DNA from: a virus
IMG/VR virus record: IMGVR_UViG_3300030202_002193
Span: 20,539-84,538 of that record
DNA: 64,000 nucleotides
Strand: one strand, 5' to 3'
Below, one piece after another: positions 3,555 through 52,782 of this stretch (positions within the stretch are counted from its first letter, which is position 1; each line of letters starts with the position of its first letter). A model generated the notes under the pieces. It did not search any database. It was not told the origin of the DNA and worked only from the letters and a program-made list of their open reading frames with translations. The position numbers were made by a program, and so were the translations under genes.

Positions 3555-3659
3555 TCATTCTGTAGTTTCTTCTTTAATTACCTCTTTCTTTGGTCGGCCC
3601 TTTTTCTTAGATTCAGATTTTCTTTTTTCTGCTAATTTTCTTTTTTCGTACATATCCAT
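3555..3659 (-). CDS. 34-aa basic micro-protein with AT-hook-like KKKGRPKK
   Basis: Hand translation MDMYEKRKLAEKRKSESKKKGRPKKEVIKEETTE; GGTGA RBS overlapping tail tube stop. Confidence 0.5.
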   Translation of the reverse strand: MDMYEKRKLAEKRKSESKKKGRPKKEVIKEETTE

Positions 3660-24070: not shown

Positions 24071-24199
24071 CTATCTTTTATCAATGCTTCCTTGAGGATT
24101 ATCCTTTGTAGGCTTCCCTGCTTTGACCCAACAACTGTCACAATATCCATATGGATTCTTTTGCTTAATAGTGTAGCAAATTCCACAATAAGTACTCAT
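24071..24199 (-). CDS. 42-aa Zn-finger micro-protein
   Basis: Hand translation MSTYCGICYTIKQKNPYGYCDSCWVKAGKP...; ATGA coupling to upstream gene. Confidence 0.55.
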   Translation of the reverse strand: MSTYCGICYTIKQKNPYGYCDSCWVKAGKPTKDNPQGSIDKR

Positions 24200-38870: not shown

Positions 38871-39217
38871 GTAAAAATCTCCAAAAATTTCCCGTAATTT
38901 GTTCGTCACTAGCGCAATTTTTCTTTTTTTTAATTTACTATTCCCAGAATAAGGTTTTTTAATTTACTTTTTTATTTTATTATATTTTAATTTGCGATAT
39001 TTTCTTGTTTTTGGTATTGTTGCAAACTTTTAATTTGAATCATTTCGCATAGCGTTTGACTTCTTGATGTTAAGAGGCTAAAGTAACATGGTATTTAGTA
39101 TTTATTAGATAATAAGGGTGCAAAAGTCTAATTGGAGGGATTAAAGAATCGTTTGTTAAAAAAAAGATTTTTGATACAAAGCCATATGGTTGTGCTTTGT
39201 TAACGCCCCGAAGGGTA

Positions 39218-39556
39218 CTATGTGGTTAATATTGACCAAGCAGAACTGGCATAGGTTTCTGAATTATCCTCATCCGATTCATACATTATACAAACCATTT
39301 CCAAAATCTTTCTGTTTGGACCTTCGGCTACATCCCAATTAATCGCATCTCTCAATCCATGTTTTTCAACTTCAGATTTGAAAACTTCAAACTCTGCATC
39401 TAGGATTTCTTCAGATGGAATACCATCTCTTTCTCGAACACATTCTCCACATAGAACAGTTACATCTATTTCAGAAAGGTCATCCTCATAATCTGAATAA
39501 TATATTCCATAATCCACTGTATTTCCACATTCACATTGCCCACTTCTCCACGACAT
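39218..39556 (-). CDS. acidic Zn-binding cassette protein
   Basis: CECG...LCGEC; sole gene between repeats 1 and 2. Confidence 0.7.
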   Translation of the reverse strand: MSWRSGQCECGNTVDYGIYYSDYEDDLSEIDVTVLCGECVRERDGIPSEEILDAEFEVFKSEVEKHGLRDAINWDVAEGPNRKILEMVCIMYESDEDNSETYASSAWSILTT

Positions 39557-39637
39557 AATCTAACTCATTTATTCTAAATAAGTAAGGTACTATCAAAGCC
39601 TAGTACCATATGGTTGCTTTGTTTTACCCTAGAAAAA

Positions 39638-39662
39638 AGAGGGGGGTTTAACCCCCCCCTCT
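39638..39662 (-). terminator. GC hairpin followed by U-run on minus strand
   Basis: AGAGGGGGG-TTTAAC-CCCCCCCTCT adjacent to A6 on plus strand. Confidence 0.7.
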
Positions 39663-39665
39663 CAT

Positions 39666-39965
39666 TTAATCGCCTATCCTAATCCAATTCCCATTCCAAG
39701 CCTCACCGTTTAGATACCATGTGAAATCTTTTTGTTGAATGTGGACCCCTGTTAAACCGTTTAGCCTTTCCTTAGTTGTGTTTGAAGACCATCCACCGTT
39801 TGAAATATATATTCCATCGGCGTTACTGTATGCTATCAGGTTTCCGTGTAGTCTCATTTCAGCCTTAATGTCGTCAATTCTAAGAACTGCCGTATTGCTT
39901 TTTTTGTAGTTGCCAGCCCATGCGTTTTCAAATGCGTGACATGCTTCTCTTGTAATTTTGCGCAT
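39666..39965 (-). CDS. conserved phage-type hypothetical protein (cassette 2)
   Basis: LHGNLIA...GWSSNTTKERLNGL motif typical of small early phage proteins. Confidence 0.7.
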   Translation of the reverse strand: MRKITREACHAFENAWAGNYKKSNTAVLRIDDIKAEMRLHGNLIAYSNADGIYISNGGWSSNTTKERLNGLTGVHIQQKDFTWYLNGEAWNGNWIRIGD

Positions 39966-40039
39966 ATCTTAATAGAGATTATTTAATTAAGTGAGGTAAT
40001 ATCAAAGCCTATTACCATATGGTACTGGCTTTGTAGAAC

Positions 40040-40705
40040 CCTAAGATAAGAAATCGGGAACAGGGGCTATATTTCGCTGACAAAGGGATGCGCTCACTGA
40101 ATAAGGAGTTAGTTACTTGATACTTTAACTAGTATTTCACAAGAGTCCAACTACCGTTTATTGCTGATTTTGCCACAACCGATGGTTACTTTATAGTCTT
40201 ATTCCGTCATTCTCACCATGTCCCAAAGTTGCCTAGGATTTGCAATGGGGGTATTTCGTGGGTGGGAAAAAAAGCGGGGGTCTATGGAATTCTTTAAGCC
40301 CAAAGGTTCCTTAAAAAACATCTCATGGTGTTCTAATAGACCCCCTAGAAAGGGATGGAGACAGGGATGGAAAAAATGCGCTTGAAAACACTACAGACAA
40401 TCTCTGTTAGGAATACGCCCTGCCCCCTTAGAATGGGCGAGAGAAAACCTTTATCTGTATGTGAACCATACAGGATGCGACGATTTCGGTAGTTGGCCCA
40501 ACTACACGCCATTAGGTTTTTTTATTTGCTCCAAACTCTCATGAAGTGTGGTTATACTTCAGGTTCTTCTTCAAGAAAGTCCCATATATCTCTATATGGA
40601 TTCTCTTTACTATTCAAGTAAATATCATCTCGATTTCCCCCTTTAGTTTAACCACTTCAAGTGGATAATCGGATAGATATTGACTTTGCCACTTGAATAA
40701 CCCAA
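40040..40705 (-). ncRNA. candidate large structured non-coding RNA (cassette 3)
   Basis: No ORF of 60 aa or more, cassette promoter present, many stems. Confidence 0.45.
40552..40617 (-). CDS. possible 21-aa acidic peptide (TTG start) NSKENPYRDIWDFLEEEPEV
   Basis: GAGATGA RBS-like motif upstream. Confidence 0.3.
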   Translation of the reverse strand: MNSKENPYRDIWDFLEEEPEV

Positions 40706-40784
40706 TATATGTATTCGAATTATTAGTAAGGTAGACAAAGCCCTACCATATGGTAGGCTTTGTTAATACCCTGTAAAGGGAGCC

Positions 40785-40814
40785 ACCCCCTAGGTCCGAA
40801 GTCCTAGAGGGGGC
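40785..40814 (-). terminator. hairpin with C(UUCG)G tetraloop on minus strand
   Basis: CCCCCTAGGTCCGAAGTCCTAGAGGGGG at 3' end of cassette 4. Confidence 0.65.
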
Positions 40815-40861
40815 AAATAGCACAAAATTGTGCTTACAACGGTTGGGAAAACCGAGGATAA

Positions 40862-41008
40862 TTATTCTTCTTCACCTACAAATGGTGCTAAAAACTCCGC
40901 ACCGAATTGGTCTGCTATATTATCTAACATAGTCAAGTTTTCATCTAACATAATTGCCAACTCTTCTAAAGTATAGTTGCTCATAAATTGTATTACCCTT
41001 TCTTTCAT
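40862..41008 (-). CDS. 48-aa acidic protein (cassette 4)
   Basis: Hand translation MKERVIQFMSNYTLEELAIMLDE...GEEE; ATGA coupling. Confidence 0.6.
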   Translation of the reverse strand: MKERVIQFMSNYTLEELAIMLDENLTMLDNIADQFGAEFLAPFVGEEE

Positions 41009-41259
41009 TCTTCTTCATCTCCAACAACGGAAACACTTGAAGAATATCTCCTTGGGTTATTAGCATTAGAAATACTTCTATCAGGGAATAATTGACAACC
41101 TATCGCCACCTTAGCGTAGGGGAATAAGTGATGCCTATACATCTTCTTATTTCGGTTGGCACAATAAGATTGCCACCATCCATCTCCTTCAGCAACTCTT
41201 TCTCTATACTCTTCTATTGGCTTCCCGCCAACTACTTGTTCTTCTTCCATATCTATCAT
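41005..41259 (-). CDS. hypothetical protein (cassette 4)
   Basis: 84 aa, coupled. Confidence 0.6.
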   Translation of the reverse strand: MIDMEEEQVVGGKPIEEYRERVAEGDGWWQSYCANRNKKMYRHHLFPYAKVAIGCQLFPDRSISNANNPRRYSSSVSVVGDEEE

Positions 41260-41447
41260 CTCAAAGTCTTGTCATTAGGGTGATTCCTGTTATGTCTAGC
41301 ATGTCTTTGTGCTAGAGTTAGGCCTAGGTCAGCGATTGACCAAACTAACCTTGTGGTATCTCCGTAATTCTTTTCTGCCAATATAGCCCTAATAGGGCGA
41401 CCCTTGTAAAAGGTAATTGGGTTCTCATATCTAGTTCTCCAACTCAT
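41256..41447 (-). CDS. hypothetical protein (cassette 4)
   Basis: AGGAG RBS; first gene after cassette promoter. Confidence 0.6.
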   Translation of the reverse strand: MSWRTRYENPITFYKGRPIRAILAEKNYGDTTRLVWSIADLGLTLAQRHARHNRNHPNDKTLR

Positions 41448-41580
41448 GTTTTTTTCTCCTAGTTAGCGATATCAAATTACACAGATTAAGTTTAAGGTAG
41501 ACAAAGCACTACCATATGGTACTGGCTTTGTGGACCCCGATTTTAATAAATTGGGGCCGAGCAAAGCAAAACTCGACGAA

Positions 41581-42132
41581 TCAGCCTTGTACCTCCTCGT
41601 TTTGGTCCGAATCGGCGGCTTCTTCTTGTACTTCGTTGGAATAGTCGTAGGACTCCATTGAGTCTACATCTCCACCCCAAACTCCGGCGGAATATCTAAT
41701 CATCATTTGCTTGTCAGCATGTGCGACTAGATAGTTTGCCATTTCTTCAACAGTCTCAAAGGAACATGGGACTCCCTTGTGAATTCTGCCATCGTGCTTG
41801 ATATCCATAGATGCTCCTCTTTTATTCCATGTAGGTAAAAAGACGGTAGCGAAGGCAATAGCGGCCTTCATCAATTTCTTAGCCTTGTGTGAATCCCAAG
41901 CAGTTTGCTTGTCTTCAGGTAAGGTAGGTTGTGAATTGGAAAGGCGAGGTGCGCCTCCAATTGCGTTGTAGTTATTTCTTAGTAGGGGCCAAATCTCCGC
42001 CACTTGTTCCGGCGTTTCTGCTCCTCTAATTCCTGCTATCAGTCCTTGAATGCTAGTTCCTAAAAATCCGCAATCATTGTTTGCGACATAGGCTTCAATA
42101 GCACTAACTTTCTTCATTATTGTTTCACTCAT
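41581..42132 (-). CDS. hypothetical protein (cassette 5), paralog of 43298-43774
   Basis: True start MSETIMKK after GGAGATGA RBS. Confidence 0.75.
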   Translation of the reverse strand: MSETIMKKVSAIEAYVANNDCGFLGTSIQGLIAGIRGAETPEQVAEIWPLLRNNYNAIGGAPRLSNSQPTLPEDKQTAWDSHKAKKLMKAAIAFATVFLPTWNKRGASMDIKHDGRIHKGVPCSFETVEEMANYLVAHADKQMMIRYSAGVWGGDVDSMESYDYSNEVQEEAADSDQNEEVQG

Positions 42133-42289
42133 AATATCATCTCCAAAAGGTTTTGATTCATCGGTTTGCTTTGCTCGACTACCCATAATATGCCACACAA
42201 ATGATAAGGTATTGCTACAAAGCCACCAATACCATATGGTTGTAGGCTTTGATACAACCTTACTTATTTTACAAGACATTAATCTAATT

Positions 42290-42574
42290 ATGGTAAGCAA
42301 ACCTAACAGTAGAGATATTAGAGAATGGGTTATAGATTTTTGTAACTCATATGAAGACCACAGTTATGATAACATAACCGAATATATTGACGGAATAGTA
42401 CCTTATACATATTTTGAAATCTTGAGCCTTTTCAACAATATGGGGTTGGAAATAACACATGCTCATGTAGGCACTCCTATTTGGGAAATAATGAGAATGG
42501 ATATATTTTACATTTGGGAAGAAAGATTTAGAGAAGACTACGAAGAATATATGTACGAACTTGAGGAGGAATAA
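42290..42574 (+). CDS. Ocr (T7 gp0.3)-like acidic DNA-mimic anti-restriction protein
   Basis: DNITEYIDGIVPYTYFEILSLF aligns by eye with Ocr [22 protein letters not shown]; very acidic C-terminus. Confidence 0.65.
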   Translation: MVSKPNSRDIREWVIDFCNSYEDHSYDNITEYIDGIVPYTYFEILSLFNNMGLEITHAHVGTPIWEIMRMDIFYIWEERFREDYEEYMYELEEE

Positions 42575-42576
42575 AT

Positions 42577-42714
42577 ATGTATTACGAAGAAGCATGCCAT
42601 TGTTGTGGTAAAGGAATAACCATCACAGGGGCATATATTGCAAACTATTCTCTTGTATTTTGTGAAGATTGCGGATATGATTCGGAATATTGTCACGGTT
42701 GTTGTGACCCCTAG
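42577..42714 (+). CDS. 45-aa Cys-rich micro-protein
   Basis: Hand translation MYYEEACHCCGKG...FCEDCGYDSEYCHGCCDP; GAGGAGG RBS. Confidence 0.55.
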   Translation: MYYEEACHCCGKGITITGAYIANYSLVFCEDCGYDSEYCHGCCDP

Positions 42715-42774
42715 GGTCGCTAAAACAAAGCAAGCCACCTAAAACAACTATAAACCCCTACTCTGAAAAAGGCA

Positions 42775-43130
42775 TATTATTAATTCATAAAAAACCATAA
42801 TAAGAAATTAGATATATTTCAATTGGCTCTTATACTATATAGGGGATATAATATGATATATTTTATGGTATAGGATATAACATGTACGGGGTCAGTCTCA
42901 CCGTTTGGTAATGAGACTGAAAATGAGACTGAAAGGATAGGCTTTCAGTACATCATTTATTATTGTATATTCTCATAATCTCATAATCTCATATCATATA
43001 TCTATCCCACCACCCCCTTTCTATCTATATCTCTCTCTCTTAGGCCATGAGACATGAGACATGAGACTGAAGTGGCGAAATTGGCTTCAGTGGTGCGTTT
43101 CTCTTTGTCTCATGGTTTGTCTCATGGTTG
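42775..43130. other. candidate replication origin (ATGAGAC iterons plus AT-rich tract)
   Basis: About 11 TGAGA-core repeats in both orientations in a non-coding region near the strand switch. Confidence 0.55.
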
Positions 43131-43264
43131 TGGACTAAAGGATATTTTATGGGGGTCGAAGTTTTATCAGTAATAAATATCTAAAAATTAAGGGGGTTCA
43201 TATCTGATAAGTGTATTTTTTACTTGATGGGTATGTGCGTAATAAATACAGACTTCGTGATAAA

Positions 43265-43281
43265 GGGCTTTATTAGATAAT
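43265..43281 (+). promoter_or_regulatory. archaeal TATA-type promoter GGGCTTTATTAGATAAT
   Basis: TTTATTA ~25 nt upstream of ATG 43298; near-identical motif at 49997. Confidence 0.6.
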
Positions 43282-43297
43282 ATGAAAGTGGATAAAT

Positions 43298-43774
43298 ATG
43301 AACTGGGAAGATTTTGTTCAAGTGGTAGAATCCTATGTGTGGATTCGTAAGGAAGAATTAGGCGGAATAGTGCAGGTAATAGATTTGCTACTAGATGCAG
43401 GTAAGAATAATGAAGACGAAAGAAGTAATGCAATTGCTTCTGTAAAGGGGCTTCTAAAGGGTAGAGAAGGTTCGCCCTTTAGACAGGGCGTAAGGTCCAC
43501 TAAGCCTATCTCTGTAAAGGTCAATATAGACAAAGTAGGGAAGATGGTAGAAGAGGCTTCTAAGGTGTATTTTAGCATGGTTCCTAATGGGCTTCATCTG
43601 AAACATGGTAAGAGTGGAGGCGGAGGCTTTGCTAGTGCAGAAGAATATGCCAAGGTCGAAAAGAAAAAGGTGATGACAATGCTCTACCGAAGACATACCA
43701 ATGGACTATGGGATGGCACTTTGGAAGGGCTTGGCTATGGAGATACGAATGGGCTTTTTTCTGAAGAGGAATAA
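43298..43774 (+). CDS. hypothetical protein, paralog of cassette-5 gene
   Basis: Shared E[SA]YV, G[SA]P, KH, F...EE.A, G.W.G motifs. Confidence 0.75.
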   Translation: MNWEDFVQVVESYVWIRKEELGGIVQVIDLLLDAGKNNEDERSNAIASVKGLLKGREGSPFRQGVRSTKPISVKVNIDKVGKMVEEASKVYFSMVPNGLHLKHGKSGGGGFASAEEYAKVEKKKVMTMLYRRHTNGLWDGTLEGLGYGDTNGLFSEEE

Positions 43775-50731: not shown

Positions 50732-51964
50732 ATGAGATTATACATAAACAATGGAAGTACAGATAGACTAACAACTGAAATAACTATAGAAGAAGGAAGA
50801 GATTTCATACCTAATGGACGCATTTATACTGTAAGTCCAAACTGGAATGCCAAGGGAGACCCCTTGCTTTCAGGATTAAGCAGTTTTTGGCAAAAACGCA
50901 TTAGGTGTAGGTATAACTACGAAAGCGTGCTTAAAATAAAAACCTACCCTATTCATATTAAGAAGAATAAGGGCTATTTCATAAACGGAACTAGAATCGG
51001 AATCAAAGGTATGTCTATGGTCTTAGCGAGACTAACCTATGCTTCGTGTTTAGAACAAAGTGATTCTAAGATGACATCTATTTTTATAGATGCTATGAAT
51101 ATACCCGAACAAGTTTCATATGCGTTAGAAAATCGTGCGCCGTATAGTTTTTATGAAAATTATACTTTGCAAGAAGTACGATTGAATGTAGAGCCTATTG
51201 GGAATAAAAAATATGCGATAGAGATATCTGATTCTATTTGGGGTGAAATTTCACAAAGGGATTTAGTAACCTTTGTCAATACTTATCGTGATAACCTGAA
51301 GAGAGGTTCGTGGAGTCAATTAAGCCCTAAGAAATTATATGGGAAACTTATGCAAGCAGAACCATCCGATTCAGAACTGAAAGTAATGAAAGCCTTTCTT
51401 TCCCAAAACAGAACCCAAGATATAGTCGAAAAAAGAGCAAAGGAATTAATTCAAGAAACTTGTGATTTAATGCCTAACAATTTCTTCTATTACAAGATAG
51501 ATGTAGAGGAAAACGGGACTATAGAGAAGGCAGGGCTGAAAATTACTAACCAAGATAACGAATGGTTATTTATTAGAGGTAGAAAATACGATTGGATGAT
51601 TCGTAAGGCGAGTAATCGTGCTAGTAGACAATCAGTAAATACCTTCGTGTATAATCAAGTAACTAAGAGGGAGAAGACAGGACAAATTAAAAATGAAGAA
51701 GGCGTATGGGTAGACACCTACGAAGAAATAACCTCCTTCCAATGGAGAGGGCCTATTTGCGTAGATAATCTAGCATTTAACGGCGCACAATCTATTGGCG
51801 ACCAAATGGTAGCAAGAGCATATGCCTTCCTGAATGATTCTGTTACTATTAATTTAGTAAGTACAATTAATTCCTATCTAAACAAAAAAGACATGTCTGA
51901 AAATAGATTAGACTTTGAAGGAATGATAATGGATGATGTGGAGTCCTTGATATGTCCTGTGTAG
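50732..51964 (+). CDS. hypothetical protein with candidate catalytic Cys (possible E2-like carrier)
   Basis: C-terminal WRGPICVD resembles E2 G-x-I-C-L-D; lies in Ubl/E1/JAB operon; fold unverified. Confidence 0.45.
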   Translation: MRLYINNGSTDRLTTEITIEEGRDFIPNGRIYTVSPNWNAKGDPLLSGLSSFWQKRIRCRYNYESVLKIKTYPIHIKKNKGYFINGTRIGIKGMSMVLARLTYASCLEQSDSKMTSIFIDAMNIPEQVSYALENRAPYSFYENYTLQEVRLNVEPIGNKKYAIEISDSIWGEISQRDLVTFVNTYRDNLKRGSWSQLSPKKLYGKLMQAEPSDSELKVMKAFLSQNRTQDIVEKRAKELIQETCDLMPNNFFYYKIDVEENGTIEKAGLKITNQDNEWLFIRGRKYDWMIRKASNRASRQSVNTFVYNQVTKREKTGQIKNEEGVWVDTYEEITSFQWRGPICVDNLAFNGAQSIGDQMVARAYAFLNDSVTINLVSTINSYLNKKDMSENRLDFEGMIMDDVESLICPV

Positions 51965-52782
51965 AGTGTGGTAGTAGTAATTTTAATTTTGATGAAAGAT
52001 TGGGAGAAAGGATTTGTATTAATTGCGGTTTAGTAGAAATAACCGAGATATTTGAACAAAGCGTTTCCCAATACAATTCAAATGGAGAATTAGTTAGAGA
52101 GTCTACCTTTAGGAATACCTTGGGTACTACTAATAGGAATAGATATGATGTTAGCGAAAGCAACATACAGACGGGCCTAGTTTACTGCAATCTAGTTTTG
52201 TCTTCTATCGCAACAAACCATCCTCTTAGAGATAGGGTAGAAGAATGCTATATTTCCCTCTTTAGAGGGAATGTATTTAGTAACAAATACAGTTATGAAA
52301 ATAGAGCAACGGCCTTGGTATATTATGTTTTGAAGGAAAATGGGATTGCTATTAAGATGAGTGATGTTCGTAAGGAATTTGAATGTGATATGCGCAAGGT
52401 GAATAAATTAACTAGGGTGATTGCAAAACACTTTGGTAATTCCGGTGTATATGCTAGGGACAATATAGTTTCTCTTTTAGATAAGACTTCTAGAGAAGTG
52501 AATGATACTGCGGAATTCATTACATTGTGTCAAGAGATGCACATAGCCGTCAATCCTATTTTAGAAGAAAATGATTTTACTAAAGGGAGGACTTATTGTG
52601 CCGCAATATGTCTAATAGTAGCGAGTGCTAATTTAATGCAAATAAAACAAAGGGACTTGGCTAAACGAGCCGGATTTGATATTTCCACGATTCGTGTTCA
52701 GGCTAAGAAGATTCTAGGTATGTTAGGATATAACAATCTAAAAGAAATTAGTGGAAAAACAATAGGAGATATGATAAAATGA
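51952..52782 (+). CDS. tfb: transcription initiation factor IIB-like protein
   Basis: Zn ribbon CVECG...D...GERICINCGLV, two cyclin-like repeats, C-terminal HTH QRDLAKRAG. Confidence 0.85.
   Translation: MSCVECGSSNFNFDERLGERICINCGLVEITEIFEQSVSQYNSNGELVRESTFRNTLGTTNRNRYDVSESNIQTGLVYCNLVLSSIATNHPLRDRVEECYISLFRGNVFSNKYSYENRATALVYYVLKENGIAIKMSDVRKEFECDMRKVNKLTRVIAKHFGNSGVYARDNIVSLLDKTSREVNDTAEFITLCQEMHIAVNPILEENDFTKGRTYCAAICLIVASANLMQIKQRDLAKRAGFDISTIRVQAKKILGMLGYNNLKEISGKTIGDMIK

Follow-up and report, generated by a model that had tools for sequence, protein, structure and literature searches.

The DNA analyzed here (the window; 64,000 nt) comprises bases 20539-84538 of the 84,538-nt IMG/VR record IMGVR_UViG_3300030202_002193, a genome rated complete by CheckV. 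It belongs to a magrovirus-type archaeal tailed virus of Poseidoniales, as assigned from gene content, size and marine origin. The genome codes for a portal, a tail tube, an SU10-like capsid protein, two ATP-dependent ligases, a Cpn60/TCP1 chaperonin, RFC and a TFIIB zinc ribbon protein; the last four, together with a capsid protein whose sole matches in the phage collection are archaeal tailed viruses, indicate an archaeal host. Magroviruses are abundant and uncultivated. The subject of this study is an array of small gene cassettes at approximately 39170-42740 of the window, which are separated by six imperfect palindromes, here called junction elements (E1 to E6; Table 1). Because leftward genes extend to approximately 42.19 kb and rightward genes begin at 42.29 kb, the sixth site lies at the strand switch, and the array as a whole coincides with both this switch and the cumulative GC-skew minimum.

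The pattern CAAAGC-N(0-12)-CATATG-N(0-12)-GCTTTG occurs at 39177, 39594, 40003, 40736, 41502 and 42218, and was found 0 times in 100 shuffles of the window. The complete genome contains no other copy. The six palindromes with CAAAGC/GCTTTG arms that were reported in the original prediction are thereby confirmed. Each element spans approximately 47-58 nt, and the core is exactly ACCATATGGT at five of the six sites and GCCATATGGT at site 1. There is no genome-wide avoidance of CATATG (33 observed, approximately 29 expected), and other occurrences of CCATATGG, for example at 24147, are not junction elements.

An exact-pattern scan of IMG/VR returned 62 loci. Forty-four of the source records carry one cluster each, with one to seven copies within 2-5 kb, and the reversed-pattern control returned none; both copy number and the spacing between elements (0.2-2.4 kb) vary freely among relatives. 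Marine metagenomes (Tara, JGI) contributed at least 80 further contigs with the element. By contrast, 596 Gb of prokaryote genomes gave 21 matches, approximately the number estimated for chance, with the exception of one contig; the element is therefore specific to viruses and is no motif of the host. The exceptional contig (NZ_NZTP01000027.1, 14.7 kb) has four junction elements within 2 kb and is filed in an Altibacter metagenome-assembled genome; it is probably a magrovirus-type contig misbinned into a bacterial genome. One 184,733-nt IMG/VR record, approximately twice the usual length of 92-96 kb, has elements at 6.3-8.7 kb and at 101.7 kb and may be a concatemer or a double assembly. A DNA-level search of the array region against the phage collection gave zero matches, and relatives sought through the neighboring 441-aa protein amounted to a single short contig that ends before the array. 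In the literature, ACCATATGGT was encountered in unrelated primer lists only, and the magrovirus papers that we examined nowhere mention palindromes, promoters or hairpins.

Table 1. Junction elements, cassettes and terminators of the array (window coordinates).
Feature	Position	Strand	Description
E1, truncated element at end of array	39170..39216		Left CAAAGC abuts CATATGG, stemless; right half GGTTGT-GCTTTG-tta-ACGCCC, fused to C(UUCG)G terminator hairpin of the 112-aa gene; adjoining end hairpin CCCTTCGGGG (minus-strand reading); T8 run just left (minus strand)
Cassette 1 cargo	39218..39556	-	112-aa Cys-rich acidic protein, no family match
E2	39583..39631		Left start hairpin GGTACTA/TAGTACC; core ACCATATGGT; right end half a 3-bp GGT..ACC stem
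Terminator of Gp96-like cassette	39637..39663	-	G/C hairpin followed by T6 run
Cassette 2 cargo	39666..39965	-	99-aa protein, Kyanoviridae Gp96 family (PF23790, phrog_554)
E3	39992..40043		Start hairpin GGTAATA/TATTACC, box end to ATG (39965) 37 nt; end half GGTACT/AGAACC
Cassette 3 cargo	40044..40700	-	Candidate structured noncoding RNA of ~650 nt, no conserved open reading frame
E4	40727..40773		Start hairpin GGTAG/CTACC toward the noncoding RNA cassette; end half GGTA/TACC; adjoining C(UUCG)G end hairpin GGACTTCGGACC (minus-strand reading)
Cassette 4 end	~40783-40823		C(UUCG)G-type hairpin
Cassette 4 cargo	40862..41447	-	Three overlapping genes (63, 84 and 48 aa); Shine-Dalgarno-like AGGAG leader
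E5	41493..41539		Start hairpin GGTAG/CTACC; end half GGT..ACC
Cassette 5 cargo	41581..42189	-	f1 family protein; start probably an internal ATG near 42135, GGAG upstream
E6, divergent junction	42205..42262		Two start hairpins (GGTATTG/CAATACC, GGTTGTA/TACAACC); behind each, TTA and an AT-rich box
Cassette 6 cargo	42290..42714	+	94-aa acidic protein (weak Ocr-like PHROG match, E 0.017) and 45-aa Cys-rich protein
Orphan end half-site	42712..42739		TAGGGTcGCT-aaaa-CAAAGC-a-AGCcACC; no ATATGG core or partner half; closes array on right

One of the defining features of the element is that each of its halves is a hairpin. The segments between core and boxes had been taken for variable asymmetric spacers; comparison of the site copies with those of relatives revealed that each of them is complementary to the flank just outside its own CAAAGC or GCTTTG box. 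They are thus the inner arms of hairpins that carry the box in the loop. A half has the layout GGT-stem-[RCTTTG loop]-stem-ACC, as in GGTACTA-t-CAAAGC-c-TAGTACC or GGTTGTA-g-GCTTTG-a-TACAACC, and the two halves are inverted around ATAT (ACC-ATAT-GGT), with TARGGT and ACCYTA as the outer flanks. Stem length is 3-13 bp, the box is 0-3 nt away from the inner (core-side) arm of its own hairpin, and the distance from box to core ranges from 0 to 16 nt.

The stems covary. For 287 distinct half-sites the stem score was 5.12, compared with 3.90±0.05 when flanks and spacers were randomly re-paired, and 301 further half-sites from 80 marine metagenome contigs gave 4.76 compared with 3.85±0.05. Among 148 distinct elements (loci L068-L101 and the window), pairing within a half beyond the invariant GGT/ACC was far above chance (z=+22 for the left half, z=+18 for the right), whereas pairing of the left inner arm with the right inner arm was below chance (z=-3.3). 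It is therefore the fold that is kept while the stem sequence varies, as at integron-type sites. The original prediction, which suggested folded sites, is supported in this respect, and the covariation was seen in two independent sets. Selection seems to act against lengthening of the central palindrome into a single long hairpin. When folded singly, five of the six copies have such a whole-element hairpin as their minimum-energy structure; it was rejected as the selected structure because the variable parts do not covary accordingly. G.T wobbles at stem positions 4 and beyond are modestly biased toward the outward-reading strand, with counts of 46:21 in the first set and 48:33 in the second, and as RNA the outward strand folds more stably than the other in start halves (-6.4 versus -5.0 kcal/mol) and in end halves (-4.9 versus -3.5 kcal/mol).

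The element is polar with respect to its neighboring genes. A half that faces a gene start reads RCTTTG-N-ACC, then TTA and an AT-rich stretch, and then ATG. A half that faces a gene end follows a hairpin, and its flank is C-C/T-R, often CCGAAGG, which on the strand of the incoming gene gives C(UUCG)G. Hairpins of this kind abut 25 of 131 end halves compared with six of 155 start halves, and a T-run is the alternative terminator at end halves. This polarity had already been recognized, together with two C(UUCG)G end hairpins, the two start halves placed back to back at repeat 6 where the strand flips, and the half-site that ends the inverted cassette; each of these observations holds, the end hairpins being next to sites 1 and 4 and the orphan half-site being without a core.

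Box and ATG are 37±1 nt apart; the value is 36-39 nt in approximately 40 start halves of the first set and in 31 of the second, irrespective of stem length, and it is less widely spread than the distances from ACC or from the core to ATG. The register between box and start codon is fixed, and the element would thus be, at least in part, a promoter component. When the 16 sequences of sufficient length are anchored at ATG, an AT-rich block is seen at approximately -29 to -21 (81-100% A/T at -25 to -21), and a C occupies position -1 in 15 of the 16. An AT-rich TATA-like block centered approximately 25 nt upstream of the start, with a pyrimidine-purine initiator, is what is expected of archaeal promoters with a B recognition element and TATA box, so that the start halves appear to have an archaeal TATA/initiator layout and the genes behind them are predicted to give leaderless mRNAs. 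Sigma-70-like sites are not enriched (13 found, 13.5±4.0 in shuffles). In a second class of start halves, to which most genes of the f1 family belong, the ATG is 76-100 nt from the box and is preceded by GGAG, which indicates a short leader. The cassette that lacks an open reading frame is informative in this respect: counted from the E4 box, its conservation among four viruses sets in approximately 37 nt downstream, so that the register is tied to the transcript start and not to translation. Elsewhere in the window, the gene at 51952-52782 (+) has a 276-aa product whose N terminus carries a TFIIB zinc ribbon (E 1.7e-7) and which may be a virus-encoded TFB-like factor for the virus-specific promoter box.

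The junctions of the first set (n=138) are tandem in 81 cases, divergent in 35 and convergent in 22, and those of the second set (n=93) are 65, 21 and 7, respectively. The values for start-half hairpins are 6.0 bp and -6.0 kcal/mol at divergent junctions and 6.4 bp and -6.7 kcal/mol at tandem ones. Followed by a T-rich box, the start-half hairpin scores as terminator-like; termination of read-through as its sole role was rejected, since stems are equally good at divergent junctions. At the array end that adjoins the leftward operon, at least seven relatives (G010, G013, G021, G027, G030, G040 and G046) share with the window a truncated element in which CAAAGC abuts CATATGG. At approximately 3560-3600 of locus L068 (genome G001), the E4 start half recurs in identical form as a lone promoter half, ACCATATGGTAGgGCTTTGtCTACC-TTAC, without a CAAAGY partner box, and hence a start half with core can survive alone when the neighboring cassette is gone.

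Cassettes are rearranged at these junctions. In comparison with the three closest relatives (G001, G002 and G003, oriented by their backbone; the window is G000), the Gp96-like, f1, noncoding RNA and F20 cassettes vary in order or orientation. In the window and in G003 the Gp96-like cassette is leftward, whereas G001 and G002 have it rightward, inverted relative to the backbone; G002 has the f1 cassette flipped; the F20 cassette occupies opposite array ends in G002 and G003; and cassettes 1, 4 and 6 of the window are missing or replaced in the relatives. Two other loci, L072 and L093, whose backbones are 93-95% identical, differ in that the blocks [f34] and [f15-f7] have traded places, and all four boundaries are at elements. 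The swapped blocks are only 81-85% identical, as would be expected of exchange between lineages rather than of frequent flipping within a genome. The contigs of four other studies carry 181 other letters in place of 39217-39658, with divergence at E1 and just to the right of E6.

The breakpoints were located more generally from high-scoring segment pairs (at least 120 nt, at least 85% identity) among 34 loci. Forty-six of their ends lie within 80 nt of an element center; 43 of these are 1-45 nt past the center, 28 of them within 15 nt; from the fraction of the DNA that these positions occupy, approximately four would be expected there by chance. Promoter half-sites travel with their own cassette even beside a different neighbor. 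Misassembly is an unlikely cause, since long identical stretches are not shared among the copies, and the blocks that moved have diverged. A weak contig joint from 39984 to 42685, with a 20-nt side, was not used. The original view of the cassettes as polar promoter-gene-terminator units with inverted half-site ends that move with them therefore fits the comparison. Related genomes do not share one arrangement with synteny breaks away from the palindromes; their cassettes vary in order, orientation and content, and the breakpoints are at the symmetric core.

Searches of the cassette proteins against Pfam and PHROG gave a solid match for the Gp96-like family alone; the Ocr-like (E 0.017), DDE_5 (E 0.015) and DUF7484 matches are below a useful threshold. 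The proposal that the array is an anti-defense arsenal depended on the single weak Ocr-like match and is not upheld. The commonest cargo is the f1 family, with 81 members in 34 loci, two of them in the window (41581-42189, minus strand, and 43298-43774, plus strand) and 79 in loci L068-L099. These proteins are approximately 150-230 aa long with the motifs W..IR, P.R.G..S.LP, HG+.GG and WDG and an acidic C-terminal tail; each genome has two to four paralogs, whose cassettes occur in either orientation. The confident AlphaFold model (predicted local distance difference test score 81) suggests a helical bundle with a beta-hairpin. As a candidate recombinase or regulator f1 gained no support, since Foldseek found nothing in the PDB at E<=0.001 and VIA-align matched generic helical bundles only, at Z<=8.4.

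The cassette lacking an open reading frame (40034-40735, minus strand) has a full promoter half-site and is 70-84% identical in G001-G003. Its RNAalifold consensus has 118 pairs, 24 with compensatory changes, including a long-range helix of AUGAGAGUUUGGAGCA with UGUUCCCGAUUUCUUAU, and its product would be a candidate viral noncoding RNA of approximately 650 nt. An Rfam scan over 38.5-43.5 kb matched no family at E<=1. Strains from two other studies have 40271-40373 swapped for 19 nt.

No enzyme dedicated to cassette movement was detected. Six-frame hidden Markov model searches of the complete 84.5-kb genome gave no tyrosine recombinase (PF00589) at E<=0.1, although a control was found in 14 of 14 genomes, and no match to serine recombinase (PF00239), Y1-HUH, HNH, GIY-YIG or Hjc. 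The earlier statement that no recombinase is recognizable in the window thus extends to the complete genome. None of the 80 metagenome contigs with the element has the terminal direct repeat of a circular single-cassette contig, although assemblies are a poor test of this.

We consider it most plausible, with a probability of roughly 0.58, that the element is a composite promoter and boundary element that doubles as the crossover point in the shuffling of cassettes, and that it resembles in its working the promoter-early stem-loop (PeSL) cassettes of T4-type phages. The element would delimit independently transcribed cassettes in a variable region between the two divergent arms of the virus. 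The half facing a gene start would be part of the promoter of that gene, with the RCTTTG box at approximately -43 to -38, followed by ACC, YTA and an AT-rich TATA-like stretch; transcription would begin at or next to the ATG and yield a leaderless mRNA, or in some cassettes an mRNA with a short Shine-Dalgarno-like leader. The half facing a gene end would lie just past a terminator, either a C(UUCG)G hairpin or a T-run. Because all junctions share the short core and fold-prone arms, they could serve as points of exchange, at which co-infecting relatives would exchange, permute and invert cassettes while each half-site stays with its cassette. The exchange would proceed by general recombination, annealing or template switching at the core and not by a dedicated recombinase. 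We favor the composite element because no recombinase or nuclease family was found, f1 has no known fold and no circular single-cassette contigs were seen. The gene at 63035-63874 (+) encodes an AAA_24 domain protein (E 4.2e-7); we take this family to include Sak4-like phage recombinases or annealases, and the product could aid short-homology exchange.

Several observations weigh against this interpretation. Promoter activity and start sites are predicted here from sequence register; the sequencing runs listed as containing the virus include none of RNA. The identity shared between junctions, a 10-bp core and two 6-bp boxes, is short for ordinary homologous recombination, and it is much shorter than the promoter sequence shared among PeSLs. 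Hairpin covariation and a variable box-to-core distance would not be expected of a plain double-stranded binding site. The element is also present at convergent junctions (22/138 and 7/93), where a promoter is superfluous and where the end halves retain both box and stem, so that a promoter role alone is insufficient. Because of the short shared identity, the covariation and the full elements at convergent junctions, a recombination system that recognizes the fold is retained as a minority reading.

The form of that reading closest to the integron/shufflon-type array first proposed is a dedicated site-specific system, in which the folded twin hairpins would be bound by an unrecognized recombinase of virus or host, with strand exchange in the ATAT/CATATG core and, as its outcome, excision, insertion and inversion of cassettes. 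It would account for the half-sites at both ends of a cassette, even at convergent junctions, for the attC-like conservation of structure over sequence with conserved loop and base, for the coincidence of the symmetric core with breakpoints, and for the occurrence of the same cassette in both orientations; the truncated element and the orphan half-site at the array ends and the modest outward-strand wobble bias (94 versus 54 at stem positions 4 and beyond) also fit. We nevertheless regard it as rather unlikely, given the absence of the recombinase and nuclease families listed above from the complete genome, of a recognizable enzyme fold in the array-associated f1 family and of circular single-cassette contigs among the 80 metagenome contigs. 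The chance-level occurrence of the element in prokaryote genomes leaves no host att-like site, the fixed 37-nt register between box and start codon suggests a role in transcription, and the swapped blocks are more diverged than the backbone. In a more elaborate version, which we judge distinctly unlikely, the elements would be the attC-like sites of an archaeal-virus cassette exchange system with a built-in promoter, the folded halves being read by an unrecognized viral or Poseidoniales recombinase and strands being exchanged in ATAT; each mobilized cassette would then arrive ready for expression in either orientation. The earlier claim of recombination at a symmetric CATATG core stands as regards the breakpoints and the variation in order, orientation and content, but is not supported as regards a site-specific apparatus, for which neither recombinase nor circles were found; unlike integron cassettes, those of the array have predicted promoters of their own.

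A purely transcriptional element is unlikely in our estimation. It would be the site of a dimeric regulator, or an insulator with a bidirectional terminator, combined with a promoter; it would play no part in recombination, and breakpoints would coincide with it because rearrangements are tolerated at cassette junctions only. The perfect 10-bp palindromic core suits a dimeric DNA-binding protein, and the fixed box-start register, the terminator-like start-half hairpin with its T-rich box, the virus specificity of the element and the TFIIB zinc ribbon protein are all in keeping with it. Yet homology ends are concentrated within approximately 15 nt of the center and not spread across the 60-250-nt intergenic spaces, a rigid dimer would not tolerate a box-core distance of 0-16 nt, and recognition of double-stranded DNA would leave the stem covariation unexplained; moreover, start-half hairpins are equally good at divergent junctions, which receive no incoming transcript. 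This last observation also bears on the very improbable alternative that the element acts as RNA, its twin hairpins in read-through transcripts being processing signals or 3'-end/termination signals, like the RNase III sites between the early genes of T7. The greater stability of the outward strand as RNA, the bias of G.U wobbles to that strand and the use of UUCG tetraloops, especially stable in RNA, by adjacent terminators would agree with such a role; the start-half hairpin, however, is upstream of the predicted start site, the better-folding strand of end halves is antisense to the incoming gene, hairpins are kept where no transcription enters, the wobble bias of the second set is weak (48 versus 33), and no Rfam family matched. 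That the palindromes are replication-origin repeats, or origin-binding sites at the strand and GC-skew switch, we find hardly credible. The position of the array and the palindromic sites with their AT-rich center would suit an origin, but whole genes lie between palindromes whose number and spacing vary freely, each half is polar relative to its adjacent gene, and a better candidate adjoins the array. This is a non-coding AT-rich stretch of approximately 560 nt on its right side (42740-43297), in which a 7-8-nt iteron, (C)ATGAGAC(T), is present at least 10 times, in both directions, along with three TCTCATA repeats; the iterons and the position at the GC-skew and strand switch make it a candidate replication origin. 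A 39-aa open reading frame within it (43054-43173), conserved in G002 and G003, is probably a DNA signal rather than a gene.

The composite element that we favor finds its nearest counterpart in the PeSLs of T4-type phages (Arbiol et al. 2010, PMC2839356; Comeau et al. 2014, PMC4122927). Both are short composite intergenic motifs of promoter and stem-loop, the promoter being predicted from register in our case; both lie in a hyperplastic region upstream of small genes of unknown function (ORFans); and in both, the endpoints of insertion, deletion, replacement and shuffling between close relatives fall at the motifs. They differ in that PeSLs have sigma-70 promoters, whereas the present element appears to have an archaeal TATA-type promoter with mostly leaderless mRNAs, is a palindrome of two hairpins with an invariant RCTTTG loop box and an invariant 10-bp core, occurs also at convergent junctions and forms one array per genome. 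PeSL mini-circles have been demonstrated (PMC2839356, PMC4122927), whereas none was seen among our 80 contigs. In view of the unenriched sigma-70 sites and the archaeal host, we regard the element as PeSL-like in its working and not as homologous. A similar class of motif has been proposed in an archaeal virus, the haloarchaeal myovirus HGTV-1 (Sencilo et al. 2013, as summarized in PMC3950731), in which a region resembling a TATA box, together with an inverted repeat, precedes most left-arm open reading frames; its authors likened the motif to PeSLs and suggested roles in regulation and shuffling. Both are archaeal tailed viruses with a repeated promoter and inverted-repeat motif ahead of many small open reading frames. 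The magrovirus element has twin hairpins around a palindromic core, and the summary in PMC3950731 cites no comparative evidence of shuffling in HGTV-1. The original prediction knew of no description of such an array in archaeal viruses, for which the HGTV-1 proposal is a precedent at the level of motif class.

Likeness to other systems is more partial. Integron attC arrays also consist of small cassettes, with a structure kept over variable stems and some strand bias in foldability. Integron cassettes, however, are promoterless and co-oriented, share a common promoter (Pc) and have a single imperfect attC hairpin, whereas here there are two hairpins per junction, cassettes with their own promoter and terminator in tandem, divergent and convergent order, no attI/Pc platform, and neither IntI nor any other tyrosine recombinase. 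Shufflons (Rci/sfx) likewise have segments bounded by inverted repeats in either orientation, but no Rci-type or Hin/Gin serine recombinase was found here (PF00589 and PF00239 unmatched), the segments are whole transcription units and not alternative 3' ends of one gene, and order and content change in addition to orientation, the variation being seen between strains and lineages in assembled contigs. The early promoters of phage N4 contain a short hairpin of DNA, conserved at positions of its loop and stem, that is read by the virion RNA polymerase. Our element would resemble them in having a short hairpin as part of an early promoter; no RNA polymerase was found among the proteins scanned here.

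The twin covarying hairpins with invariant loops, whose inner arms avoid each other, represent an architecture unlike that of the bacterial PeSLs, and they raise the question of whether folded DNA is read by the archaeal transcription machinery or by recombination machinery. For magroviruses, the sequence RCTTTG box, 37 nt, start provides a predictive rule for promoters and transcription starts, and the element is a marker for the variable cassette region in any related contig. The comparison of relatives provides direct evidence that cassettes move between magrovirus lineages at a defined 10-bp core.

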